Source of the DNA: Pyrinomonadaceae bacterium
GTDB taxonomy: Bacteria; Acidobacteriota; Blastocatellia; Pyrinomonadales; Pyrinomonadaceae
Direction: 5' to 3'
Length of the DNA: 64,000 nucleotides
NCBI GenBank assembly: GCA_963759665.1
Contig: CAVXAC010000002.1
Location: 482,995 to 546,994, forward strand
In this document: positions 8,165 through 47,434 of the stretch, piece after piece
Numbering within the stretch: the stretch's first letter is position 1
Layout of the letters: the number at the start of each line of letters is the position of its first letter
The notes under the pieces: model-generated
What the model saw: only the letters and a program-made list of their open reading frames with translations
Databases searched by the model: none
Told to the model about the DNA's origin: nothing
Translations under genes and position numbers: made by a program

Positions 8165-8167
8165 ACG

Positions 8168-8223
8168 ATTGCTGATTGCTGAATGCCCGACATTCGAAAT
8201 CCGAAGTTCGAATTTCGAAATCT
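8168..8223. repeat. period-7 tandem array between wza and wzc
   Basis: GATTGCT GATTGCT GAATGCC CGACATT CGAAATC CGAAGTT CGAATTT CGAAATC. The units contain TTCGAA palindromes. Confidence 0.8.
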
Positions 8224-10737: not shown

Positions 10738-10988
10738 CCGCAAAGGGCGAAGGGCGAAGCATCGCTGGTTCTACTGAACGCGGACATGCGGCCACATTTT
10801 CGATTTGAAGACTTGGAGATATGGCACCTTGCCAGGGGACTCGCAGTCAAGCTTCACCAGTAGAACAGGCGAGATCGATCCGTTGTTGGTTGACTGCGAT
10901 ATGTTGAGTCGCAAGATTACAAACTTTTCAAGGAGTCTCGGCCCAGGGAAATAGCGCAGCCCTTTGCTCTTAGCCCTTCGCCCTTTGC
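10738..10988. mobile_element. IVS-like hairpin cassette with AAGGGCG-repeat arms carrying an internally deleted four-helix-bundle gene
   Basis: Left arm CAAAGGGCGAAGGGCGAAGC (10741-10760) is complementary to right arm GCCCTTTGCTCTTAGCCCTTCGCCCTTTGC (10959-10988). The interior is homologous to both ends of the 13476-13838 gene. Confidence 0.55.
10786..10954 (+). pseudogene. four-helix-bundle protein (23S rRNA IVS protein family) remnant, internal deletion plus frame change
   Basis: MRPHFRFEDLEIWHLARGLAVKLHQ-stop aligns with the N-terminus of the intact paralogue. GEIDPLLVDCDMLSRKITNFSRSL (another frame) aligns with its C-terminus. The central part is missing. Confidence 0.8.
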
Positions 10989-12000: not shown

Positions 12001-12436
12001 TGTCCGACATGCTCGAATGTCCGACATGCTTCAGCTTGTCGCCAACAATTAAGATTTCAAGCTACGATTTCAGAAAAACCACTGTTGAGTGTCACGTCCC
12101 TCACGACAAGCTGAAGCATGTCGAACGGCTTTGCACAAAAAGTCGCGGTTGGTTGGGTTAGCATGTACATTCACAAAGTATGGCCCAGGTGTGGTTACGC
12201 GAAGCGATCTCATTAACACCGCGGCTTTAGCCCGGTGTTCACAGGGCATGGCAAGTTTTCCTAACCGTTTTAACGGTTTACAGTCGCCCGCTAAAAAACC
12301 GTTGAAACGGTTACCCTCCTTTTGCAGGCCGCGTGATCACCGGGCTGAAGCCACGGTGTTAATGAGATCGCTTCGCGTCAACCTGGATCGGAGTTTTTGT
12401 CCAAGGCTATGTCGAACATTAAGCATGTCGAACATT
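12001..12436. repeat. nested palindromic element in the gmd-fcl gap
   Basis: Outer arms: 2 x TGTCCGACATGCT (12001-12030) vs 2 x ATGTCGAACA (12409-12436). A 23-bp stem pairs 12018-12041 with 12104-12126. A near-perfect 39-bp inverted repeat pairs 12199-12237 with 12338-12376 and encloses two small palindromes (AACCGTTTTAACGGTT, AACCGTTGAAACGGTT). Confidence 0.75.
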
Positions 12437-12445
12437 TGATCACCA

Positions 12446-13438
12446 ATGCCTGAGTCAACTTTCCCTTACCAGAAAATAGTGGTCACCGGCGGCGCAGGCT
12501 TCCTCGGTCAGCGCGTAGTCGCGAAACTTAAAACGTATCAGGACGTCGAAGTCTTTGTTCCACGCAGCGCAGACTACAACCTCGTCGAAATGGCCGACGT
12601 AAAAAGGCTGTACGCGGACACCAGGCCCGACTTGGTCATCCACCTCGCTGCGGTAGTCGGCGGCATCGGCGCCAACCAGAAAAACCCCGCGAAATTCTTT
12701 TACGAAAACCTGATGATGGGCACGCAGTTAATTGAACAGGCCCGTTTGAATGGCGTGCGAAAATTTGTCGCGGCGGGCACTGTTTGCGCTTATCCAAAGT
12801 TCACCCCGGTGCCGTTCAAGGAAGACGACCTCTGGAACGGCTATCCTGAAGAGACAAATGCGCCCTATGGCCTGGCGAAAAAGATGATGCTGGTCCAGGC
12901 GCAAAGCTATCGCGAACAATACGGCTACAACGCCGTCTTCCTGCTGCCCGCAAATCTCTATGGGCCAAACGACAATTTTGATTTGGAAAGCTCTCACGTG
13001 ATCCCGGCGCTGATTCGCAAGTGCGTGGAAGCGCGTCGTAACGACGCCGAGTTCATCGAAGTGTGGGGAACCGGAAACGCCTCGCGTGAATTTCTTTACG
13101 TGGACGACTGCGCCGACGCGTTTGTGCGTGCCGCCGCAGATTACGACGAATCCGAGCCCGTCAACATCGGAGTTGGCAGCGAGATCACTATCCGCGACCT
13201 CGTAAATTTGATCACAAGGCTCACTGGTTTTGAAGGCGAGATCAGATGGCAAACCGACAAGCCAGACGGCCAACCACGCCGCTCCCTCGACGTCAGTCGC
13301 GCATACGAAAAGTTTGGCTTCAGAGCGCAGACCACGTTCGAAGAAGGACTGCGTAAGACGATCGAGTGGTATGAAGCGCAAAGCGCCAAGAGCCAAGGGC
13401 AAAGAGCTAAGGGCGAACAAGCAAGGGCAACGGGCTAA
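12446..13438 (+). CDS. fcl: GDP-L-fucose synthase (GDP-4-keto-6-deoxymannose 3,5-epimerase/4-reductase)
   Basis: 330 aa with [28 protein letters not shown] and HVIPALIRK, directly after gmd. The last ~17 codons ([17 protein letters not shown]) are encoded by the repeat arm of the next element. Confidence 0.9.
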
Positions 13439-13854
13439 GGGCAAAGCAAAAATTACTACCGCGAGATAGCAAAAAATGCGACCTCACTTTCGATTTGAAG
13501 ACTTGGAAATATGGCAACTTGCCAGGGTGATGGCGGTAAAGCTACACAAGCTCGCCGACGATTTGGAGAAGAAGCGACTCTATCGTTATGCCGAGCAGTT
13601 AAGAGCAGCCGGATTGTCGCTGACAAATAATATAGCGGAGGGATCAGGGAGTACTCATTCGCGAGAGTTTCAGCAGTTTCTTAACATCGCGCGGCGATCC
13701 CTGTTTGAAGATGCGTCAATGCTGATGGTTTTTGAAAGTCTGGGTCTTTTCAAAGCAGGTGAGATCGATCCCCTTCTGATCGACTGTGACATGCTGAGTC
13801 GCAAGATTACGAACTTCTCGCGGACCCTTAGCTCTTAGCGCTTCGCCCTTAGCC
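13389..13854. mobile_element. IVS-like hairpin cassette with period-7 (GGCNAAG) arms carrying an intact four-helix-bundle gene
   Basis: Left arm is 8 heptamers (AGCCAAG GGCAAAG AGCTAAG GGCGAAC AAGCAAG GGCAACG GGCTAAG GGCAAAG, 13389-13447). Complementary right arm is CCTTAGC TCTTAGC GCTTCGC CCTTAGC (13825-13854). Confidence 0.6.
13476..13838 (+). CDS. four-helix-bundle protein (23S rRNA intervening-sequence protein family, PF05635/TIGR02436-like)
   Basis: 120 aa with FEDLEIWQLA, LTNNIAEGSGS and FLNIARRSLFE, characteristic of this family. Confidence 0.85.
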   Translation: MRPHFRFEDLEIWQLARVMAVKLHKLADDLEKKRLYRYAEQLRAAGLSLTNNIAEGSGSTHSREFQQFLNIARRSLFEDASMLMVFESLGLFKAGEIDPLLIDCDMLSRKITNFSRTLSS

Positions 13855-13861
13855 GACTCTA

Positions 13862-27772: not shown

Positions 27773-29551
27773 ATGTGTGGCATTAGCGGTTGGTTCTTAA
27801 AGCGGGGCGAAGCGTTTGACGAGGCGCATGCGGTGGCGATGGCAGATGCCATCTCTCATCGCGGGCCGGATGATCGAGGATATTACTTCGACGCCGAGCG
27901 TGGCGTGTCGCTGGCCCACAATCGTCTGAGCATCATCGATCTCAGCGCAGCGGGTCACGAGCCCATGATCAGCGAAGACAAAGCCCACGCGCTGATCTAT
28001 AACGGCGAGCTCTACAACTTCGTCGAGCTAAAAGAGGAACTGAAGGAGCTCGGGCACACCTTCCGATCGCGAACAGACGCGGAAGTAGTCCTGAAGAGTT
28101 TTATCGAATGGGGGCCGGCATGTTTGGATCGCTTCTCAGGAATGTTTGCCTTCGCAATTTGGTCGGCTGCGTCGGGCAAGCTTTTCCTGGCACGTGATCC
28201 GATGGGAATGAAGCCGCTTTATTACACCTCGCTTCCGGGTGATAAAGGCTTCGCGTTCGCCTCCGAGATCAAAGCCTTCCTGGCCCTGCCAAACTTTGGT
28301 GTCAAAGCAAACCGGATTGCGCTGGCCCAGTTTCTGGAGTTTGGCTATACGTTTGACGAACACGCTACTTCGCTCGACGGCGTGTCTAAACTGCCACCGG
28401 GGCACTCGCTCGAAGTGGTCAATGGAATCCCCGGCACACCTCAGCCATTCTTTATCGCACCGGTTCCGGATGCGCGCGATCATCGCACTGTGCAGCAGCG
28501 GGAAGAAGAGTTGTACCAAACACTCTCCACCGTGGTCGCTCAGCATCTGGTTGCAGACGTTCCGGTTGGACTGCTTCTCTCCGGTGGTTTGGATTCGAGC
28601 ATCACTGCTGCTCTGGCGGCCCGCCACGCGAAGATTACAACGATCAGTATGGGGTTTGCGGAATCAACTGTGGACGAACGGCACTACGCACGGATCGTGG
28701 CCGATCACATCGGATCAGATCACCGTGAAGTAACGATTCACCCGCATGAAGTCAGCGACGACCTGGAAGCCGTCACCTGGTATTTCGACGACTTGTTTGC
28801 CGACTGGGGAACGGTCTCGACAAGGTTGCTCTACAAGAAGTGTCGCGAGCAGGGGATTAAGGTTGTGCTCGTTGGGGAAGGGGCAGACGAGCTATTTGGC
28901 GGTTACTCAATTTTCGATGCAGCGGTGCAGAACAGTTCCTGGCCCACGTCATGGCGGCTCTTCCAACTTTATCGTCGCTATGCCGGGCGTCGTTACGGAA
29001 ATCAGTTTCCAAGATTTCGATCGGTCATGAGAGGTTATTTACAGCAGACTGGCGATGACATGTTTGGTGCGGTCAAGTTGTTTGAATCACGCAATCAGTT
29101 GCCGAACAACTACGTGATGAAGGTAGACAAGGCGAGCATGTCAGTCAGCGTCGAAGCGCGAGCGCCGTTTCTCGATCGCCGGATTGCTGAAATCGCCTAT
29201 CGCACGCCGTCGAAATATTTGCGGGTTGGTGATTCAAATAAGGAACTCCTTCGTTCGACGGCCGAGCGCTTTGACTTGCTGCCGAGAGAGATCACGCGAC
29301 GACCCAAGTTTGGCGCGTCGATCGCGGCGTCATGGATGGACGAGTCGGAGACGTTTCGTGAGTACGCCCGCAGCGTGATTCTCGATGGGAATGGTTGGAT
29401 TGACGAGCTCGGGCTGCGGCCGGCGATGACTGACTACTTTTCCGGTAAGCGCCAGGGCTATACCTTCCCTCGCGCGATCAGCATCTTCAGCAACTTGGCG
29501 TGGCGGTTGTTGTTGTTGAATTTGTGGTCAAGACGATATGCGGCGCCGTAG
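27773..29551 (+). CDS. asparagine synthase (glutamine-hydrolysing) family amidotransferase
   Basis: 592 aa with the N-terminal MCGI nucleophile, HRGPDD, RLSIIDLS, LARDPMGMKPLYY and the PP-loop LLSGGLDSS. Confidence 0.9.
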   Translation: MCGISGWFLKRGEAFDEAHAVAMADAISHRGPDDRGYYFDAERGVSLAHNRLSIIDLSAAGHEPMISEDKAHALIYNGELYNFVELKEELKELGHTFRSRTDAEVVLKSFIEWGPACLDRFSGMFAFAIWSAASGKLFLARDPMGMKPLYYTSLPGDKGFAFASEIKAFLALPNFGVKANRIALAQFLEFGYTFDEHATSLDGVSKLPPGHSLEVVNGIPGTPQPFFIAPVPDARDHRTVQQREEELYQTLSTVVAQHLVADVPVGLLLSGGLDSSITAALAARHAKITTISMGFAESTVDERHYARIVADHIGSDHREVTIHPHEVSDDLEAVTWYFDDLFADWGTVSTRLLYKKCREQGIKVVLVGEGADELFGGYSIFDAAVQNSSWPTSWRLFQLYRRYAGRRYGNQFPRFRSVMRGYLQQTGDDMFGAVKLFESRNQLPNNYVMKVDKASMSVSVEARAPFLDRRIAEIAYRTPSKYLRVGDSNKELLRSTAERFDLLPREITRRPKFGASIAASWMDESETFREYARSVILDGNGWIDELGLRPAMTDYFSGKRQGYTFPRAISIFSNLAWRLLLLNLWSRRYAAP

Positions 29552-29570
29552 GATCAATACAGAACGGATT

Positions 29571-30452
29571 ATGAAAGAGTGGTACATAGGACGCCTGGCA
29601 TGTCCCGATTGCTCAAAAGAGCTCCAGCAGCTGCAGGATGCGATTGCTTGCGAGCAATGCGGATTTTCGACGCCAATTGCGAAATGCCTTGACCTGCGTC
29701 CTAGAAAATGTCAGAATCGATCACAGAATATCCCAAGTACTTTTAGCGGAGAGGAAGCATTCGTCAAGACCAGAAAGGAGAGCCCGTCAATCAGCTATGA
29801 TGGGCCTAATGAGGGCCGCGACTCCAGAGAGCTTTTGTCAGTCATAGAGCAATTGCTAACGACTCCCGGGTGCGTGCTCGATCTGGTTGCGGCCCAAAGG
29901 ACCAGTTCGAACCTATTACATATTTGGGCCACAACTATGTGGGCATCGACCTGTTTAGCCCTGCCGCTGATATCAAGGGCGACGCCCATGTCTTGCCTAT
30001 TCTAACTTCTAACTTCGACTGTGACTTCTCCTTTGCCGTATTAGAGCACCTTCAGACCTCACTGATTGCTTTGAGCGAAATAAGAAGGGTGCTGAGACCC
30101 AATGGAATCTTCGTTGGTACCGTTGCGCAGGGAGAACCATTTCATAGCTCATTCTTCCATCACACGAGTTTGGGGAGTTTTGAGCCTTGCTAGCGCAGCG
30201 GCATTGGAGGTCGTCCAGCTATGGACGTGTACCGATACCCTCTCGTCGTTGGCTTACATGGGTCGTTATCCCAGGGTGCTAAGAGCCGGTCTAAGTATGT
30301 TGGATCTGATTCATACAACTTTTCCTTTGTTGGCGCCCCGAAAAGCAAGGTGGTCCGCAGAGGATAAAGCAATTGATGCGTTGCATCGTGCCGGAAGCAT
30401 TGGCTTCGTCATGCGCAGAGCGACGGTGGACGGTGGTTCCGAGCAAAATTAA
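29571..30452 (+). pseudogene. class I SAM-dependent methyltransferase with N-terminal zinc-ribbon, two frameshifts
   Basis: CPDCSKEL..CEQCGF, then VLDLGCGPKDQ (frame change ~29885), VLEHLQ..RRVLRPNGIFVG, and a second change at ~30180. Confidence 0.7.
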
Positions 30453-40886: not shown

Positions 40887-42068
40887 ATGAAGGTACTCCA
40901 CGTTATTCCTTCGGTGGCGCCACGTTATGGTGGTCCAAGTCGCGCAGTTATCGAAATGTGCAGCGCCTTGGACAACCGCGGCATGTCGACAATTATAGCG
41001 ACCACGAATGCCGATGGAGACGGCGCGCTTGAGGTGGAATTGGGCAAACCGGTTACCTATCAGAACATCCAGACTATTTTCTTTCCCAGACAATGGACCG
41101 AGGCCTACAAATATTCGCATCCGCTCGCGAAATGGCTCGACGAACATGTTGCCGAGTTTGATCTGGTCCATATTCACGCCGTGTTTTCGCACTCGTCCCT
41201 GGCCGCAGCGCGGGCATGTCAAAGAAAGGGCGTGCCCTACCTTGTGCGCCCCCTGGGCACGCTCGATCCCTGGAGTCTCAAACAGAAGACCGCGCGCAAG
41301 AAACTCTTCTGGCATCTCGGCGTGAAGCAGATGCTGGAAGGTGCGGCGGCGATTCATTACACGACCACGGACGAACAGAAGTTGGCGGAGGAATCGTTGG
41401 CGCTCAAACGTGGCGTCGTCATTCCTCTTGGTATTGAGACGGAGCTATTCAATCAATCCGATCAGCGCGAACCTGCCACCGTCGGATCACCGTATGTCCT
41501 GGTGCTTTCGCGTCTGCACCAAAAGAAGGGTCTCGAACTTTTGCTGCCGGCCTTTCTTTCGCTCGTCAAGCGCCCTGAGTTTTCGAAATGGAAACTAGTG
41601 CTGGCCGGTGAAGGCGAAGCGAGGTATGTCGATTCACTCAAGGCGCTGGCCAAATCGCACGGCGGAAACGGCAATGTCGTGTTCGCCGGATGGCTCGATG
41701 GTGAGCCACGACGGTCGATGCTCCGCCATGCATCGCTGCTCGCGCTGACTTCATATCAGGAAAACTTCGGTCTGTGCGCGGTAGAGGCACTCGCGTGCGG
41801 CGTTCCCGTTCTTCTTAGCCCCGCAGTCAACATCGCTTCGGAGATCGATCGAGTTGGCGGCGGTTGGATTTCCGCCCTGGAGAATGAATCGCTCGAACGT
41901 AATCTGGCTGAATCACTCGGCAACGAAAAGGAACGAGTGCGTCGCGGAACACTTGGTAGGGATTTTGTGCAACAACACTTCACCTGGGAATCGGTGGCTA
42001 ATGCGCTGGTAGAGCTTTACGAATCGGTGAAGACAAAGCAGAGTCTGTCGGGACGCGAATATGCTTGA
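40887..42068 (+). CDS. GT4-type glycosyltransferase
   Basis: 393 aa with MKVLHVIPSVAPRYGGPS at the N-terminus and LALTSYQENFGLCAVEALACGVPVLLS (EX7E region). Confidence 0.88.
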   Translation: MKVLHVIPSVAPRYGGPSRAVIEMCSALDNRGMSTIIATTNADGDGALEVELGKPVTYQNIQTIFFPRQWTEAYKYSHPLAKWLDEHVAEFDLVHIHAVFSHSSLAAARACQRKGVPYLVRPLGTLDPWSLKQKTARKKLFWHLGVKQMLEGAAAIHYTTTDEQKLAEESLALKRGVVIPLGIETELFNQSDQREPATVGSPYVLVLSRLHQKKGLELLLPAFLSLVKRPEFSKWKLVLAGEGEARYVDSLKALAKSHGGNGNVVFAGWLDGEPRRSMLRHASLLALTSYQENFGLCAVEALACGVPVLLSPAVNIASEIDRVGGGWISALENESLERNLAESLGNEKERVRRGTLGRDFVQQHFTWESVANALVELYESVKTKQSLSGREYA

Positions 42069-42936
42069 TCGGATCACCCCACTCATCCTGACTTACAACG
42101 AAGCGCCAAACATCGGCCGCGTGTTGGACCGACTTGGGTGGGCGCGTGACATCGTAGTAGTCGATAGCTTCAGTGATGACGACACGCTCGAGATCGTGTC
42201 GCGTTATTCCTCAGCACGCGTGATTCAAAGAGAGTTTGACGCCCACGCAAAACAGTGGGAGTTTGGGCTTAAGGAGACAGGAATAGCTTCTGAGTGGGTG
42301 TTAGCTCTGGATTCCGACTATGTATTGACGCCTGAATTTATAGAGGAACTAAGAGCGCTCAACCCGACGGCCGACGTTCAGGGCTACTGTGCGCACTTCA
42401 CCTATTGCATCAATGGCCGCAAGTTGAGAAGCGGAGTCTATCCGCCGGTGACAGTCCTTTATCGACGAGAGGCCGCTACGTACATTCAGGATGGACACAC
42501 CCATCGAGTTGTCGTGGACGGAAAGATTGAAAACCTCAGTGCCAAAATTCTGCACGATGACCGCAAGCCACTCAGTCACTGGTTTGCAGCCCAGTCGCGT
42601 TACACCGAACTGGAAGCGGAAAAGCTTCGGTCCGTAGAACCGGCGAGTTTGGGCTGGAAGGATCGGATGCGCCGGTGGCGGATAGTCGCGCCCCCGGCGA
42701 TGTTGCTTTATTGCCTGATCGTTCGTGGTGGCGTGTTCGACGGTTGGGCCGGATTTTATTACGCCTTTCAACGAGCCCTCGCCGAGCTGATGCTGTCGCT
42801 CCGGTTGTTCGAAAGCAAAGGGGTAAGAGCCGAGAGCGAAGAGGCAGAGCCCATCAGAGGGGAAGGGGGAAGGGGTAAAAGGGAAAGCGCAATCGTTGAA
42901 GCGAAGCCACGCGAGGGATCTGCGCTTGTTCCCTAG
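42061..42936 (+). CDS. family-2 glycosyltransferase
   Basis: ITPLILTYNEAPNIGRVL, VVVDSFSDDDT, ALDSDYVL. The last ~30 codons (EEAEPIRGEGGRGKRES...) are encoded by the repeat arm of the next hairpin. Confidence 0.82.
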   Translation: MLDRITPLILTYNEAPNIGRVLDRLGWARDIVVVDSFSDDDTLEIVSRYSSARVIQREFDAHAKQWEFGLKETGIASEWVLALDSDYVLTPEFIEELRALNPTADVQGYCAHFTYCINGRKLRSGVYPPVTVLYRREAATYIQDGHTHRVVVDGKIENLSAKILHDDRKPLSHWFAAQSRYTELEAEKLRSVEPASLGWKDRMRRWRIVAPPAMLLYCLIVRGGVFDGWAGFYYAFQRALAELMLSLRLFESKGVRAESEEAEPIRGEGGRGKRESAIVEAKPREGSALVP

Positions 42937-43014
42937 CTTTCCTTTTACCCATACTTGCTTCGCGTCTTTTAACCCCGTTTCGCTTGACCCTTTCCCCTTC
43001 GCCCTTCGCCCTTA
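42857..43014. repeat. empty hairpin with period-7 GGGGAAG / CGCCCTT arms
   Basis: GAGGGGA AGGGGGA AGGGGTA AAAGGGA AAGC (42857-42888) is complementary to GCTTTCCTTTTACCC (42936-42950) and CCCTTTC CCCTTCG CCCTTCG CCCTTA (42988-43014). Confidence 0.75.
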
Positions 43015-43025
43015 GCACCTAACCT

Positions 43026-45056
43026 ATGTGTGGAATCTGCGGAGTAATTGATTGGTCCGAGTCTCCCGACGCACCGGGGATCGTGCGTCGAATGACGCCG
43101 ACGATGAAACATCGTGGGCCAGACGACGAAGGAATTTCGGATTTCGGAATGCGGAATTCGGATTGGGGGCTAAGCGCAGAGGGCGAAGGGCAAAGGGTTA
43201 GCGAGCGAAGAGTTTCGATTGGGATGCGTCGCCTAAGCATTATTGACGTTGAAGGTGGGCACCAGCCGATGTTCAATGCCGACCGCACTGTGGCCGCAGA
43301 GCTTAACGGCGAGATCTACAACTTCCAGTCGCTGCAACAACAGTTGAGAGAGCGCGGCCACGTCTTCCACACAAGGTCAGATTCTGAGGTTGTCGCCCAC
43401 GCTTATGAAGAATGGGGCGCTGAGTGTGTCGAAAAATTTGAAGGAATGTTTGCAGTCGCAGTGTGGGACGGGCGCGCGGGGCAGGAAGCAGGAGGCGGGA
43501 CGCTGTTTTTGGCGCGGGACAGGATGGGGATTAAGCCGCTGTATTACTACGCCGGGAAAAGCAAACAGCAAACAGGCAACGGCGATCAGCTAGCCGAAAA
43601 TAGGAAGTGCTTTCTTTTCGCTTCGGAAGTACGAACGATTCTGGCAAGTGGCGTTGTTGGGCGCAGGCTTTCGCCGGAAGCCCTGGAAAGCTATTTGTTG
43701 TTTGGTTCAGTGAGTGAGCCAATGACACTTGTTGAAGGTGTGCTTTCGATTCCACCGGGACACCGGATGACCGTCACCTACGGAACTTCTGTCAGTATCC
43801 CCCAGCCTGAGCCTTACTGGACCATCCCCGGACGAACCACGACATCAGGAAATGGCTACGTAAAAGCGACTGATATTGACTCCGCCGCGGTAAAGGTCAG
43901 GGAACTGCTTGAAGCAAGTGTGCGGAAACACCTGATTGCTGATGTGCCGGTTGGTGTTTTCTTGAGCGGCGGAATTGATTCGACCGCGCTCGCCGGACTG
44001 GCGGCGAAGGAGTCAGCAGGGATCCACACGTTTACAGTGGCGTTTGCCGAAGAGGAGTTTAGCGAAGCCGACATCGCCAGGCGCACTGCAGCTACGCTTG
44101 GCACAACCCACCAGGAAGTCATGTTAACCGGCGGCGAGATGCTGGCCCGGATGGACCAGGCGGTTAGCTCTTTGGACCAGCCGTCCATGGACGGCATCAA
44201 TACCTACTTCGTATCGCAGGCGGCGCGAGAGGCGGGTTTAAAAGTTACCCTATCGGGGCTGGGTGGGGACGAAGTTTTTGGCGGCTATGAAACGTTTGCG
44301 CGCACTCCTACGCTCGAAAAAATCGGAGGTGCTGGCGGCAAGATGCCGCGTCGAGTGCGCGAAGCCGTGGCAAGTGTGGCCGGTGGCGCCGCCGGAATGC
44401 GCGCCCGCGGAGACGTGGTACGGAAGATGACGGCGTTGTGGAACGACAGCGCGTCGTTGCCACATCCATACTTTTTTGGTCGTGCACTTTTTACCCCGCT
44501 GCAGGTTAGCGAGTTGTTAACGAAACAAAGCGGAAAGAATGGAAACTCACTTTGGTGGAATTGGCTATCGGACAGCGCTGCTCGCTCGCGGAATTTCGAT
44601 CAGTTCAGTGCGGTGACTTGTTTGGAATCCCAGTCTTATCTGGTGAACACATTGCTCCGCGATACCGATTCGATGAGCATGGCGCATTCGCTCGAAGTTC
44701 GCGTTCCGTTTCTCGATCATCCATTGGTGGAGTTTGTGACGCAGCTTCCGCAGGAACTGAAACTGCAAAAAGGTCGGACAAAGTCGTTGTTGGTTCGCGC
44801 ACTGTCGGATCTATTGCCGGTGGAGGTGCTTGGAGAAAAGCGTGGATTTACTTTTCCGTGGTCCAGCTGGTTGCAGGGACCGCTGAAGGAACGCCTGGAC
44901 GAGGGCTTTGACAACTTTGCTCCGGCACTCCGAGAAGCAATGAACCAGGAGAGCGTTAAGACAATTTGGCGCGACTATCTGAGCGGAAAGACGAGTTGGT
45001 CGCGCCCCTGGAGTCTTTACGTGCTCAACGAATGGGTGAAGCGCAACCTGAGTTAG
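43026..45056 (+). CDS. asparagine synthase (glutamine-hydrolysing) family amidotransferase with three low-complexity insertions
   Basis: 676 aa with MCGICG, HRGPDD, RRLSIIDVEG, LARDRMGIKPLYY and the PP-loop FLSGGIDST. Insertions relative to the paralogue at 27773 are described in the findings. Confidence 0.9.
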   Translation: MCGICGVIDWSESPDAPGIVRRMTPTMKHRGPDDEGISDFGMRNSDWGLSAEGEGQRVSERRVSIGMRRLSIIDVEGGHQPMFNADRTVAAELNGEIYNFQSLQQQLRERGHVFHTRSDSEVVAHAYEEWGAECVEKFEGMFAVAVWDGRAGQEAGGGTLFLARDRMGIKPLYYYAGKSKQQTGNGDQLAENRKCFLFASEVRTILASGVVGRRLSPEALESYLLFGSVSEPMTLVEGVLSIPPGHRMTVTYGTSVSIPQPEPYWTIPGRTTTSGNGYVKATDIDSAAVKVRELLEASVRKHLIADVPVGVFLSGGIDSTALAGLAAKESAGIHTFTVAFAEEEFSEADIARRTAATLGTTHQEVMLTGGEMLARMDQAVSSLDQPSMDGINTYFVSQAAREAGLKVTLSGLGGDEVFGGYETFARTPTLEKIGGAGGKMPRRVREAVASVAGGAAGMRARGDVVRKMTALWNDSASLPHPYFFGRALFTPLQVSELLTKQSGKNGNSLWWNWLSDSAARSRNFDQFSAVTCLESQSYLVNTLLRDTDSMSMAHSLEVRVPFLDHPLVEFVTQLPQELKLQKGRTKSLLVRALSDLLPVEVLGEKRGFTFPWSSWLQGPLKERLDEGFDNFAPALREAMNQESVKTIWRDYLSGKTSWSRPWSLYVLNEWVKRNLS

Positions 45057-45459
45057 TTTCGAGTTTCAAGTTCAAGTCTCAATTCAAGAACAAGCCGGAT
45101 ACAAGTTTTTGGAGAAGTTCACCCTGCAGCCGCTCAACCTTCCGCCTCCTTCAGGAGAATGCTATGGCTACGTTTAATAGGTTCGAAGAAATTGAATGCC
45201 GGCAAAGGCTCGAGAGCTGACTCGTGGGATTTATCACATTACAAATTATCCTGCTTTTGCTCGTGACTTTGGATTGAAGGATTAGATCCGCAGAGCAGCC
45301 GTGTCGGTGATGTCAAACATAGCGGAGGGCTATGATCGAAGTGGCACGGCGGAATTAATTCATTTCCTCGCTACTGCTCGGGACTCTGGATACAAGGGAA
45401 CGAAATTCAAGTCGGCGGCTTCGGATGTAACTTGAAACTTGAAACCTGGAACCTGGAAC
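45057..45459. mobile_element. IVS-like hairpin cassette with TTCAAG/CTTGAAA-repeat arms carrying a decayed four-helix-bundle gene
   Basis: Left arm GTTTCGAGTTTCAAGTTCAAGTCTCAATTCAAG (45057-45089). Right arm CTTGAAA CTTGAAA CCTGGAA CCTGGAA C (45431-45459). Confidence 0.55.
45164..45430 (+). pseudogene. four-helix-bundle protein (23S rRNA IVS protein family) pseudogene, frameshifted and 3' truncated
   Basis: MATFNRFEEIECRQ.., LTRGIYHITNYPAFARDFGLKD and IRRAAVSVMSNIAEGYDRSGTAELIHFLATA are readable only by switching frames. The last helix is missing. Confidence 0.75.
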
Positions 45460-45460
45460 T

Positions 45461-47434
45461 ATGTTTGTCTTAGGGATCAACGCATATCACGGTGACGCGG
45501 CTGCTGCGCTTATCAAGGACGGTCAGCTAATCGCGGCGGTTGAAGAAGAGCGCTTCAATCGTGTCAAGCATTGCGCAGGTTTTCCTGCGGAGTCAGTGCG
45601 CTATTGCCTGCGCGCTGCAGGAATAAGAATCGAGCAGGTCGATCACATCGGAATCTCCCGCGACCCGTCGGCCCATCTACACAAGAAAGTCATCTTTGCT
45701 GCGACCAGAGCGGCGCGGCAGATGGCCGGTAAACAGGAGGCAGGAGGCGCAAGGCAGGAGGCAGGTGTGGAAACCATAACCGGGGAGAGCGCCAACGGTA
45801 AGAATGGACGTGGGAAGGGAATCTTCGCCCAGGTTAAGGACCGGCTGAACAATGCCGCTAAGGTGAACGACCTGCAAAACGATCTGGCAAAGGCGCTGGA
45901 TGTTTCCCCCAAACTCGTGCGCGCGCGCTTTCATAACATCGAACACCATCGTGCGCATCTGGCCAGCTCTTTTTACGTTTCACCATTCGAACGCGCCGCG
46001 CTCTTGTCAATCGACGGCTTTGGCGATTTTGTCTCCACGATGTGGGGCATCGGCGATGGCAACCGCATCAAGGTTTTGGACCAGGTCGAATATCCCCATT
46101 CCACCGGCATTGTCTACACGGCGACCACTCAGTTTCTCGGTTTTCCTTACTACGGTGATGAAGGCAAGATCATGGGATTGGCGCCATATGGCAAGCCGCG
46201 TTTCATCGAACAGTTTCGCGAAATCATTCGCACTGAAGCGCACGGGCACTTCCGCATCAACCTCGACTACTTTCGTCATCATGCTGAAGGTGTGGATATG
46301 ACCTGGGATCAGGGGTCGCCGGTCATTGGGAGAATATTTTCAGACGAGTTTGCCCGCACGTTTGGCCCAGCCCGCCAGCCCGGTGACGCTTTAACGGAAA
46401 GGGAAGAGGACATCGCGGCCAGCCTGCAATTGCGCCTGGAAGAAGTCGGGTTTCATGTGTTGAACCATCTGCATGACCAGACAGGGCTCACCGACCTCGG
46501 TCTCTCGGGAGGCGTGGCATACAACTCGGTGATGAACGGAAAGATTTTGTTGAAAACGCCGTTTCGCCGTGTGTTTGTTCAAGCGGCGGCTGGTGATAGC
46601 GGCACAGCTTTGGGCGTGTGTTATGCGATCAATGCGCAGGAAGCTCCCAGAAACCGAAGTACCAGTTTGCGATACGGCGTAGAGCAATCTGTTAGATTGC
46701 GGCCGGATGGCTCAGAGATCGCCGACGATCAGAGAAACGAGTCAACTCCGCAAACTAACAGTTTGCGATACGAGACTCCGCAAACTAACAATTTGCGTTA
46801 CGTGATGCACGGTGCTTACACCGGACCTGAATTCACCAGCGAAGAGATCCGCGCGGAGCTTGATGTCAGTAAGCTTAAGTACGAATCCTTCAGCGATGAA
46901 GAAGTAACAAAGCGCGCCGCTCAGGATATCTCCGATGGACTGGTTGTGGGTTGGTTTCAGGGACGAATGGAATTCGGACCACGCGCGCTCGGCAACCGTT
47001 CCATCGTTGCCGATCCTCGCCGTGCCGAAATGAAAGACATTCTCAACGAGCGCATCAAAAAGCGCGAACCCTTCCGTCCTTTTGCCCCATCAGTCCTGGA
47101 GGAGCACACCGCGCAATACTTCGAGCAGGACCATCCGGCGCCGACGATGTTGATGGTCTATCAGGTTCGCCAGGAACGTCGTGCAAGGATTCCTGCCGTA
47201 ACTCATGTGGACGGCTCAGGGAGATTACAAACCGTTTCTCCCGAAACCAACCCGCGGTACTACCAATTGATCAGCGACTTCTACAAACTCACGGGTGTTC
47301 CCGTTGTTCTCAATACCTCGTTCAACGAAAATGAACCGATCGTATGCACGCCCCGACATGCCATCGATTGCTTTCTAAAAACGCGCATGGACGTTTTGTA
47401 TTTAGGGAATCACATGGTGAGGAGGGTGGCCTAA
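45461..47434 (+). CDS. NodU/CmcH-family carbamoyltransferase with repeat-derived insertions
   Basis: 657 aa with LGINAYHGDAAAALIKDG..EEERFNRVKH, HHRAHLASSF, GLSGGVAYNSVMNG and LNTSFNENEPIV. Confidence 0.88.
   Translation: MFVLGINAYHGDAAAALIKDGQLIAAVEEERFNRVKHCAGFPAESVRYCLRAAGIRIEQVDHIGISRDPSAHLHKKVIFAATRAARQMAGKQEAGGARQEAGVETITGESANGKNGRGKGIFAQVKDRLNNAAKVNDLQNDLAKALDVSPKLVRARFHNIEHHRAHLASSFYVSPFERAALLSIDGFGDFVSTMWGIGDGNRIKVLDQVEYPHSTGIVYTATTQFLGFPYYGDEGKIMGLAPYGKPRFIEQFREIIRTEAHGHFRINLDYFRHHAEGVDMTWDQGSPVIGRIFSDEFARTFGPARQPGDALTEREEDIAASLQLRLEEVGFHVLNHLHDQTGLTDLGLSGGVAYNSVMNGKILLKTPFRRVFVQAAAGDSGTALGVCYAINAQEAPRNRSTSLRYGVEQSVRLRPDGSEIADDQRNESTPQTNSLRYETPQTNNLRYVMHGAYTGPEFTSEEIRAELDVSKLKYESFSDEEVTKRAAQDISDGLVVGWFQGRMEFGPRALGNRSIVADPRRAEMKDILNERIKKREPFRPFAPSVLEEHTAQYFEQDHPAPTMLMVYQVRQERRARIPAVTHVDGSGRLQTVSPETNPRYYQLISDFYKLTGVPVVLNTSFNENEPIVCTPRHAIDCFLKTRMDVLYLGNHMVRRVA
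46749..46797. repeat. two tandem 30-nt units each containing the CGCAAACTAACAGTTTGCG palindrome, inside the carbamoyltransferase CDS
   Basis: CGCAAACTAACAGTTTGCG (46749-46767) and CGCAAACTAACAATTTGCG (46779-46797), translated as TPQTNSLRYE / TPQTNNLRYV. Confidence 0.9.

Follow-up and report, generated by a model that had tools for sequence, protein, structure and literature searches.

How can a tandem repeat with a unit of seven nucleotides persist inside the coding sequence of a conserved enzyme? This question is raised by the asnB-family gene at 43026-45056 of the window (the whole 64,000-nucleotide stretch of Pyrinomonadaceae DNA analysed here), in which an initial annotation, made from the letters alone, had placed three in-frame heptamer-array insertions. 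Comparison with homologous sequences indicates that the three segments are insertions and not ancestral sequence, and we consider it probable that they are in-frame remnants of near-neutral heptanucleotide arrays, which were copied between nearby sites and survived in tolerant loops only. The gene and its insertions are the following.

43026-45056, plus strand: asnB-family glutamine amidotransferase gene, host of the three insertions, an intact open reading frame (ORF) of 676 aa
43134-43164, plus strand: insertion 1a, an (ATTTCGG)~4.4 array encoding ISDFGMRNSD, from Tandem Repeats Finder (TRF) and the heptamer register
43163-43211, plus strand: insertion 1b, a degenerate (GGGCGAA/GGGCAAA) array encoding WGLSAEGEGQRVSERR (TRF 43167-43197, 4.4 copies)
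43474-43501, plus strand: insertion 2, three to four degenerate units (GCGCGGG GCAGGAA GCAGGAG GCGGGAC) encoding AGQEAGG
43560-43594, plus strand: insertion 3, AGCAAAC AGCAAAC AGGCAAC with decayed units, encoding KQQTGNGDQLA (TRF)

The units can be read directly in each segment. Insertion 1a consists of TTTCGGA (43135-41), TTTCGGA (43142-48), ATGCGGA (43149-55) and ATTCGGA (43156-62), and insertion 1b contains CGAAGGG (43184-90) and CAAAGGG (43191-97) with degenerate units on either side, so that insertion 1 as a whole, set in a 7-nt register, reads ATTTCGG ATTTCGG AATGCGG AATTCGG ATTGGGG ... AGGGCGA AGGGCAA AGGG. In insertion 2 the units are GCAGGAA (43481-87), GCAGGAG (43488-94) and GCGGGAC (43495-501), and in insertion 3 they are AGCAAAC (43560-66), AGCAAAC (43567-73) and AGGCAAC (43574-80), followed by GGCGATC; TRF reports 2.3 perfect copies at 43560-43575, with decayed units beyond. 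When periodicity was measured as the fraction of bases matching the base seven positions on, insertions 1, 2 and 3 gave 0.59, 0.67 and 0.66 at period 7, and 0.11-0.52 at periods 3-6 and 8-12. The only period-7 arrays inside asnB are these three, one per extra segment, and arrays cover 91 of the 111 inserted nucleotides vs 62 of the 1917 core nucleotides, the 62 being mostly array edges. Direct reading and the period-7 peak therefore agree on the heptamer units listed in the initial annotation, which had described segment 1 as one array series; its heptamers are confirmed, and they form two arrays, (ATTTCGG)n in 1a and (GGGCRAA)n in 1b.

The product of 43026-45056 is an AsnB-family (class II, or N-terminal nucleophile (Ntn)) glutamine amidotransferase. 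The protein starts with MCGICG, the cysteine nucleophile directly following the initiator methionine, and joins an N-terminal class-II glutaminase domain (GATase_7, 4.4e-40 in Pfam) to a C-terminal Asn_synthase domain (PF00733, 4.7e-86 in Pfam). It passes NCBIfam TIGR01536 with 429 bits at a cutoff of 267. Assignment to the XrtA/PEP-CTERM amidotransferases (TIGR03108) was rejected, with 421.8 bits against a cutoff of 816.9.

That the segments are extra had been claimed from comparison with one paralogue in the window, which also served as an internal control.

27773-29551, plus strand: paralogous AsnB-family gene, 592 aa, with zero period-7 arrays inside

Insertions 1-3 are indeed absent from this paralogue, and they are equally missing from PDB 7ylz and 1ct9 and from an outgroup of 15 orthologues of other Acidobacteriota (about 50% identity, 639-680 aa). 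In HMMER alignments, insertion 2 corresponds to a 6-aa gap against 1ct9 and 7ylz, and insertion 3 to a 15-aa gap against 7ylz. The outgroup genes contain essentially zero period-7 arrays, and none of their non-core nucleotides lie in arrays. The alignment with AsnB homologues that had been proposed as a check on lineage-specific insertion was thus answered by all 15 of 15 outgroup sequences lacking the segments.

Within the Pyrinomonadaceae, inserts of this kind are frequent. We compared 55 orthologous proteins of 632-795 aa and, at the DNA level, 12 orthologues from loci found by a genome-collection scan, a metagenome scan and exact-protein matches; the genome-collection scan gave at least two Pyrinomonadaceae loci with a gene of the subfamily at 59% identity, and a further locus, L060, with a relative at 38% identity. 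The top named relatives of the window protein are metagenome-assembled genomes (MAGs) of Pyrinomonadaceae (Acidobacteriota), the nearest orthologue being 64% identical in a BLASTP local alignment and up to 68% in the multiple alignment. Nearly all length variation of the 55 orthologues falls at five places of the orthologue alignment.

Site 1: after HRGPDDEG
Site 2: after AVWDxR
Site 3: after KPLYY
Site 4: after YWNIA
Site 5 (minor): near residue 500

The peptides inserted there are translations of heptamer arrays (ISDFGFRNSD, QRAKSEEQR, SEFRVPSSE, LETRNSKLE, VQSPKSKVQ/WTLDVG, QQSAxS), and the inserts are plain arrays at the DNA level, where arrays cover 58% of inserted vs 2.1% of core nucleotides in the 12 orthologues, all 12 of which are in frame and intact. 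The composite insertion 1, in which (GGGCRAA)n follows (ATTTCGG)n, recurs at site 1 of L082, L161, L162 and L163, QEAGG-type arrays occur at site 2 of P0003 and P0014, and QQ(S/T)A-type insertions at site 3 in many orthologues; each site is also empty of insert in many others. Turnover of the insert content is rapid: the closely related proteins P0007, P0008 and P0011 have site 1 in common and wholly different sites 2 and 3. Among close relatives, L084 and L086, with 93% DNA identity, are distinguished by a sole indel, 24 nt within the site-2 array, and the indels among L083, L084 and L086 (24, 12 and 3 nt) are restricted to arrays; the window genome has no strain-level relative in this set. 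Equivalent insertions are present in many independent assemblies (JGI, ENA, NCBI). Since different repeat insertions occupy the same loops in relatives, the loops have been remodelled across the lineage and not in a one-off event. The status of the segments as insertions therefore stands, and their being private to the window gene does not, as the same insert types are found at the same loops of other Pyrinomonadaceae orthologues.

Two further forms of insert were observed in the orthologues. At site 3, L081 and L083-L086 carry a full inverted array pair within the coding sequence, in frame and 75-120 nt long, of the form (AAGTTTC)n...(GAAACTT)n or (AGTCCAA)n...(TTGGACT)n, with the potential to form an mRNA hairpin of 25-30 bp. 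Over 24-32 nt, the site-3 arms of L083 share 97-100% identity with arrays lying about 1.4 kb downstream. At site 4 of L082, one case of a period-8 array encodes RGDAETERRGDGG.

The initial annotation had held that a period-7 array can stay in frame only as multiples of three units (21 nt), and had suggested looking for steps of 21 nt among orthologues. Apart from one mode at site 3, neither idea survives comparison with the data. Over the outgroups, the window protein has an excess of about 20 aa at site 1, about 4 to 6 aa at site 2 (a small insert, counted against the shortest loops) and 15 aa at site 3, and none of the inserted lengths (about 60, 12-18 and 45 nt) is a multiple of 21. Indels between close relatives compared as DNA pairs measure 24, 12, 3 and 12 nt. 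One 21-nt duplication separates P0008 and P0011, and among the five sites examined in the 55 orthologues a +7 aa mode appears at site 3 only (13 of 55), possibly inherited from one event. Any insert total divisible by three suffices, since the arrays are imperfect and some of their units are partial. A heptamer array is then read in all three frames in turn, so that it gives a peptide repeat of 7 aa and its unit must be stop-free in each phase. Direct reading of all arrays within coding sequences of the window showed totals divisible by three and units free of stops in the three sense-strand phases: TTTCGGA gives FRISDFG, GGGCGAA gives GRRAKGE, AGCAAAC gives SKQQTAN and CAGGAGG gives QEAGGRR.

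The positions of the inserts in the protein were assessed with an AlphaFold2 model built from the 55-sequence alignment, with a mean predicted local distance difference test score (pLDDT) of 77 and a predicted TM-score (pTM) of 0.84. The model matches TsnB9 (7ylz) and Escherichia coli AsnB (1ct9) with target-normalised TM-scores of 0.77-0.80, and in it all three insertions are connections of consecutive beta-strands of the glutaminase domain.

Insertion 1: residues 42-58, pLDDT below 50, between strands E34-40 and E63-69
Insertion 2: residues ~150-158, pLDDT ~69 with one helical turn, between strands E140-148 and E159-164
Insertion 3: residues 182-191, pLDDT below 50, between strands E173-179 and E193-199

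The model suggests that these loops lie on the protein surface. As for the surface-loop check proposed earlier, placement between consecutive strands is found for all three segments, with low pLDDT for insertions 1 and 3 and an intermediate value for insertion 2, and exposure at the surface is a prediction from these features. Residues C2, R69, N94-G95-E96, D119 and S314/G316/D318/S319 are invariant in the 55 orthologues, as is the PP-loop FLSGGIDST (SGGxDS); this invariance of catalytic, glutamine-binding and PP-loop residues agrees with the description of the amidotransferase as otherwise conserved, and the enzyme is presumably functional despite its inserts.

The repeats of asnB belong to a population that extends over the window. 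With arrays called at a minimum of 15 of 21 period-7 matches and dinucleotide-preserving shuffles as the null, the 64-kb window contains 19 period-7 arrays vs 0.5 in shuffles, and periods 4-6 and 8-12 are near background. The density is 6.3 arrays per 10 kb in 14 Pyrinomonadaceae-like loci vs 0.23 in 150 other loci, a 27-fold difference; this period-7 repeat class is amplified specifically and massively in Pyrinomonadaceae genomes. Most arrays lie at gene boundaries; those that follow stop codons are rich in G or in purines, and those that precede start codons are rich in C. Only 6 of 20 window arrays are wholly within ORFs, though about 88% of the window is ORF. A few unit families recur. The GGGCGAA family, the commonest in the window, is also found at 10739, 13374 and 42988, the TTTCGGA family is present as its complement at 8188-8221, and AGCAAAC nearly matches the complement of the 8166-8187 array, in accordance with the earlier statement that the insertion units are of the same kinds as those of the intergenic arrays.

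Among the 150 other loci, L031, from a Chloroflexia MAG (DATEOC010000082.1), has about 5 arrays per 10 kb, near the Pyrinomonadaceae density, and the heptamer-array phenomenon may be present in other soil lineages. By rotation, most unit families can be brought to an RAA ending on the purine-rich strand (GGGCGAA, GGGCAAA, GTCAGAA, GGCAGAA, TCCGAAA, CTTGAAA, CAGCAAA and GTCCAAA); this shared ending may hint at a sequence preference of the generating process, and is only suggestive.

Insertion 1b has a complementary counterpart in the 5' leader of the gene.

42987-43022, plus strand: (CCCTTCG)n array of the 5' leader, its end lying 4 nt upstream of the ATG (TRF and repeat search)

The arms 42987-43022 and 43163-43198 form an inverted repeat of 36 nt with 83% complementarity, 140 nt apart, and the leader array also pairs weakly with 42856-42885 in the upstream GT2 glycosyltransferase gene. 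The predicted RNA fold of 42975-43215 has -118.9 kcal/mol and z = -6.9, with the leader and 1b arms paired right up to the AUG. GGGCGAA had been noticed upstream of the start codon in the initial annotation; the unit family was correctly seen, it is present there in reverse-complement form only, (CCCTTCG)n at 42995-43013, and the inverted repeat with insertion 1b had been missed. As the two arms enclose the conserved first ~46 codons, the pair cannot have come as one mobile unit. The pairing of leader and insertion 1 was examined in 11 loci and is not conserved: insertion 1 is present in L082, L161 and L163 without a complementary leader array, and L083-L086, which lack insertion 1, have in their leader an (AATCCGA)n array complementary to insertion 1a. 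By eye, the leader array of L162 is also the complement of insertion 1a; the inverted-repeat scan gave no score for it. A conserved regulatory structure of leader and insertion 1 was rejected on the basis of these 11 loci, and the pairing is therefore treated as a by-product of array spread.

Complementary arrays also flank the intergenic region downstream of asnB.

45055-45088, plus strand: (AGTTTCR)n array starting from the asnB stop codon, left cassette arm (TRF and repeat search)
45429-45460, plus strand: (AACTTGA)n array reaching the carbamoyltransferase ATG, right arm, 94% complementary to 45056-45072

The (AGTTTCR)n family occupies the same position in L083, L084, L122 and L161. The intergenic hairpins of the window are cassettes made of a heptamer array, a PF05635 gene and a reverse-complement array; PF05635 is the 23S rRNA intervening-sequence protein, an Avd-like four-helix bundle. 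An intact copy lies at 13476-13838 (cassette 13368-13857, Pfam E = 3.5e-24), and 10740-10988 is a homologous internal-deletion derivative of the intact cassette. By eye, the stretch 45086-45424, which separates asnB from the carbamoyltransferase gene, resembles a decayed copy, its frame-2 translation having internal stops; tblastn with the intact PF05635 copy did not detect 45086-45424. Downstream of the orthologues, the order stop codon, (AGTTTCR)n, gene, (GAAACTT)n and ATG is found in L083 (3795-4362), L084 (4585-5135) and L122 (1762-2335), and L161 (3612-4192) has the same flanking arrays with no detectable gene. The stems of rRNA intervening sequences are cut by RNase III, and the cassette layout is similar to theirs. 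PF05635 is reported to resemble Avd, the accessory protein of diversity-generating retroelements (PMC10053308). Among the literature searched there was no description of PF05635 genes flanked by repeats.

The genes around asnB encode GT4, GT2 and GT87 glycosyltransferases, an FkbM methyltransferase, a GDP-mannose dehydratase, epimerases and a NodU/TobZ-like carbamoyltransferase, and the setting is therefore a polysaccharide biosynthesis cluster. Arrays are also present in other coding sequences of the window.

42854-42892, plus strand: (GGGGAAG)n array in the C-terminal tail of the GT2 gene 42061-42936 (TRF)
45727-45767, plus strand: in-frame (CAGGAGG)n array in the carbamoyltransferase gene, encoding KQEAGGARQEAG, of the same QEAGG family as insertion 2

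The array-extended tail of the GT2 protein reads ...GEGGRGKRES.... An (AAGGGCA)n array (13368-13453) forms the end of the epimerase gene 12446-13438, the left arm of an intergenic hairpin being translated here as a protein tail. In the NodU/TobZ-like carbamoyltransferase (45461-47434), residues ~67-156 do not align to PDB 7xb6 and contain the 45727-45767 array, and residues ~391-450, also extra with respect to 7xb6, hold a 30-nt tandem duplication (TPQTNSLRYE/TPQTNNLRYV, array 46745-46802). The carbamoyltransferase orthologue in L161 has (ATTTCGG)n and (CAGCAAA)n arrays.

Considering these results, the process that we favour is one in which arrays would expand and contract by replication slippage and their sequence would be copied, often as the complement, between nearby sites by template switching, ectopic conversion or small hairpin cassettes. 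Such copying is suggested by the reused unit families, the inverted pairs and the match of the L083 site-3 arms to arrays 1.4 kb downstream. Arrays landing in coding DNA would be lost unless their total length is divisible by three, and a surviving array would need a unit that is stop-free in the three sense-strand phases and a peptide placed in a loop tolerant of flexible, hydrophilic residues. Selection would act as a filter, sparing arrays where a flexible hydrophilic loop is harmless, and the inserted peptides would need no function of their own. The tolerant places found are three beta-strand connections in the N-terminal glutaminase domain and one or two further loops in relatives. Of the earlier claim that arrays invaded the coding sequence and were kept where tolerated, the insertion into strand connections is upheld, and the mechanism of invasion is a presumption from the patterns above. 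Several points weigh against this interpretation. The databases searched contained no strain-level relative (nearest 64-68%), and slippage was therefore not directly observed here. No window array has more than two perfect units; being short and degenerate, the arrays are old remnants. Slippage alone leaves the recurring unit families and complementary pairs unexplained. Neutrality is assumed, and repeated hits at the same loops could reflect targeting or selection for variability. Surface exposure rests on secondary structure and low pLDDT, not on measured accessibility.

Instead of spreading as arrays, pre-formed miniature hairpin cassettes, comparable to miniature inverted-repeat transposable elements or Rickettsia palindromic elements and derived from the intergenic gene-carrying cassettes, may have transposed into the coding sequence, an explanation that we regard as possible while leaning against it. 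It would account for the full inverted pairs at site 3 of L081 and L083-L086, for the L083 arms being 97-100% identical to the arrays that bracket the downstream four-helix-bundle gene, and for the homology of two bracketed intergenic elements, one of which is an internal-deletion derivative. However, insertions 2 and 3 of the window are single arrays that lack a complementary partner within the insert, the 1b/leader pair spans the essential first ~46 codons with its partner outside the gene, and a search for homology between the site-3 hairpin spacers and the cassette interiors found none, only the arms matching other loci; neither target-site duplications, the ends being repetitive, nor a transposase were identified. 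Retention of insertion 1b as a regulatory RNA or DNA structure, tuning amidotransferase expression through start-site sequestration or as an RNase III or G-quadruplex site, is unlikely. The 36-nt, 83%-complementary inverted repeat, its fold (z = -6.9) with the leader paired to the AUG, and the possible alternative pairing of the leader array with 42856-42885 would suit such a role, as would the four G-tracts of insertion 1b, G-rich heptamer repeats of this type being reported to form G-quadruplexes (PMC4692102); yet the pairing is not conserved in the orthologue loci, and with GGGCGAA as the commonest family of the window, a complementary neighbour would arise by chance in about 10% of cases by our own estimate.

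If the inserts were instead selected as variable disordered surface loops, for interaction, solubility or evasion, one would understand why the same loops are occupied again and again by hydrophilic peptides (G, E, Q, K, S, R) of low pLDDT, and tandem repeats that create disordered regions in Borg proteins offer a precedent (PMC9879509). We consider this improbable, as many orthologues lack an insert at each site, the insert content is the translation of whichever array family is present, the period-7 signal points to conservation of the DNA repeat and not of the peptide, and the enzyme is expected from its family to be cytoplasmic. Gain or loss of a single 7-nt unit would shift the frame, so the arrays could also be contingency loci by which an enzyme of surface-polysaccharide modification varies in phase. 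Polysaccharide clusters are the classic setting of phase variation driven by simple sequence repeats (SSRs), and the gene stands in such a cluster next to a carbamoyltransferase gene that also bears an array. We find it very unlikely nonetheless: degenerate arrays with at most two perfect units should slip at low rates, all 12 Pyrinomonadaceae orthologues read at the DNA level are intact with no frameshifted alleles, and the indels between relatives are multiples of 3, not 7. An assembly artefact or a decaying pseudogene might be suspected from the nearby methyltransferase-like gene at 29538-30452, which is split over three frames, but is effectively refuted by the intact 676-codon frame with every catalytic motif and by the equivalent inserts in many independent assemblies.

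The association with PF05635 cassettes may bear on the origin of the arrays. We would further venture, as a speculation to which we give little weight, that in Pyrinomonadaceae complementary heptamer arrays are written by an active, lineage-specific process, perhaps linked to PF05635 cassettes as in 23S rRNA intervening sequences, which seeds both the gaps between genes and the coding loops. If so, an unrecognised self-propagating repeat system, and not passive polymerase slippage, would be constantly remodelling protein loops and mRNA hairpins.

Several known repeat systems resemble the arrays in part. Cyanobacterial STRR sequences, reportedly described by Mazel in 1990, are heptanucleotide repeats, and to our knowledge the long-standing explanation of heptamer repeats by polymerase slippage has never been tested. 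Heptanucleotide repeats are summarised as the commonest long SSR class in bacteria and attributed to polymerase slippage (Mrazek, 2007, as summarised in PMC4679880), and gene-end arrays have been described in cyanobacteria, Xanthomonas, Beggiatoaceae and some Bacteroidetes (PMC4679880; PMC4692102). G-rich heptamers of Xanthomonas and Nostoc (GGGAATC / GGGGA(T/C)T) lie within 50 bp of stops and starts (PMC4692102). Like bacterial heptamer SSRs, the arrays described here have tandem 7-nt units with a period-7-specific excess, occasional inverted pairs, wide variation of length and sequence between relatives and under-representation in coding DNA, and they share with the Xanthomonas and Nostoc heptamers a G-rich sense strand after stops and a C-rich one before starts, a few tens of bases away. 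They differ in belonging to the Pyrinomonadaceae lineage (Acidobacteriota) and in the coexistence of several unit families instead of one. Intragenic TAACTGA repeats of Beggiatoaceae are reported chiefly from protein termini or hypothetical proteins (PMC4679880), whereas the window arrays are fixed in frame inside conserved catalytic domains, at recurrent loops.

Comparisons with other in-frame repeats are also partial. The repeat units in Borg ORFs are reportedly multiples of three; here the unit is 7 nt, the peptide period is 7 aa and the frame is kept by total length only. In common with Borg protein repeats (PMC9879509), fast-evolving tandem repeats arise independently in ORFs and add low-complexity disorder. 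Rickettsia palindromic elements are tolerated in frame in metabolic genes (Ogata et al., 2000, as reviewed in PMC10969869); the resemblance lies in selfish repeat DNA kept in frame at fold-compatible positions, some orthologue inserts being palindromic. Those elements are about 150 bp with conserved sequence and peptide, whereas here there are short 7-nt arrays of variable copy number in several families, and the window inserts are single arrays, not complete palindromes. As in SSR contingency loci, for example those of Haemophilus and Moraxella (cited in PMC4679880), non-triplet tandem repeats occur in or near surface-polysaccharide genes; unlike in those loci, the arrays are degenerate and short, and orthologue differences are frame-preserving with no frameshifted alleles seen. 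In the literature searched we found no report of heptamer repeats in Acidobacteria or Pyrinomonadaceae, nor of heptamer arrays inserted repeatedly at the same loops of a conserved catalytic domain. What appears to be new here is the lineage, the coexisting families and the recurrent in-frame loop arrays; heptamer repeats and in-frame selfish elements were already known.

These arrays are an example of how non-triplet tandem repeats can steadily supply new protein sequence to conserved enzymes, and the repeated hits at the same strand connections in dozens of orthologues provide a map of insertion-tolerant sites in the Ntn-amidotransferase fold. They also raise the questions of why heptamers and why complementary pairs, for which the association with Avd-like cassettes is a concrete lead. 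In practice, the inserts inflate protein lengths and create spurious low-complexity motifs (SEFRVPSSE, LETRNSKLE, QQSAxS, HHRDTENTEDAQ), and they will confuse annotation and alignment of Acidobacteriota proteins.

Some other features of the window were recorded. The overlapping ORFs 29538-30005, 29870-30193 and 30102-30452, in different frames, look like one frameshifted S-adenosylmethionine-dependent methyltransferase gene, which could be a pseudogene or reflect assembly indel errors; a short (TTCTAAC)2.4 array lies inside this region at 30000-30016. A search of the whole window against Rfam at gathering thresholds returned zero RNA families. Two long inverted repeats are not of the heptamer type: one at 12197-12378 (54 nt, 89% complementarity, 74-nt loop), and one at 2063-2168 (41 nt, 85%, 24-nt loop), which lies between convergent genes and is terminator-like.

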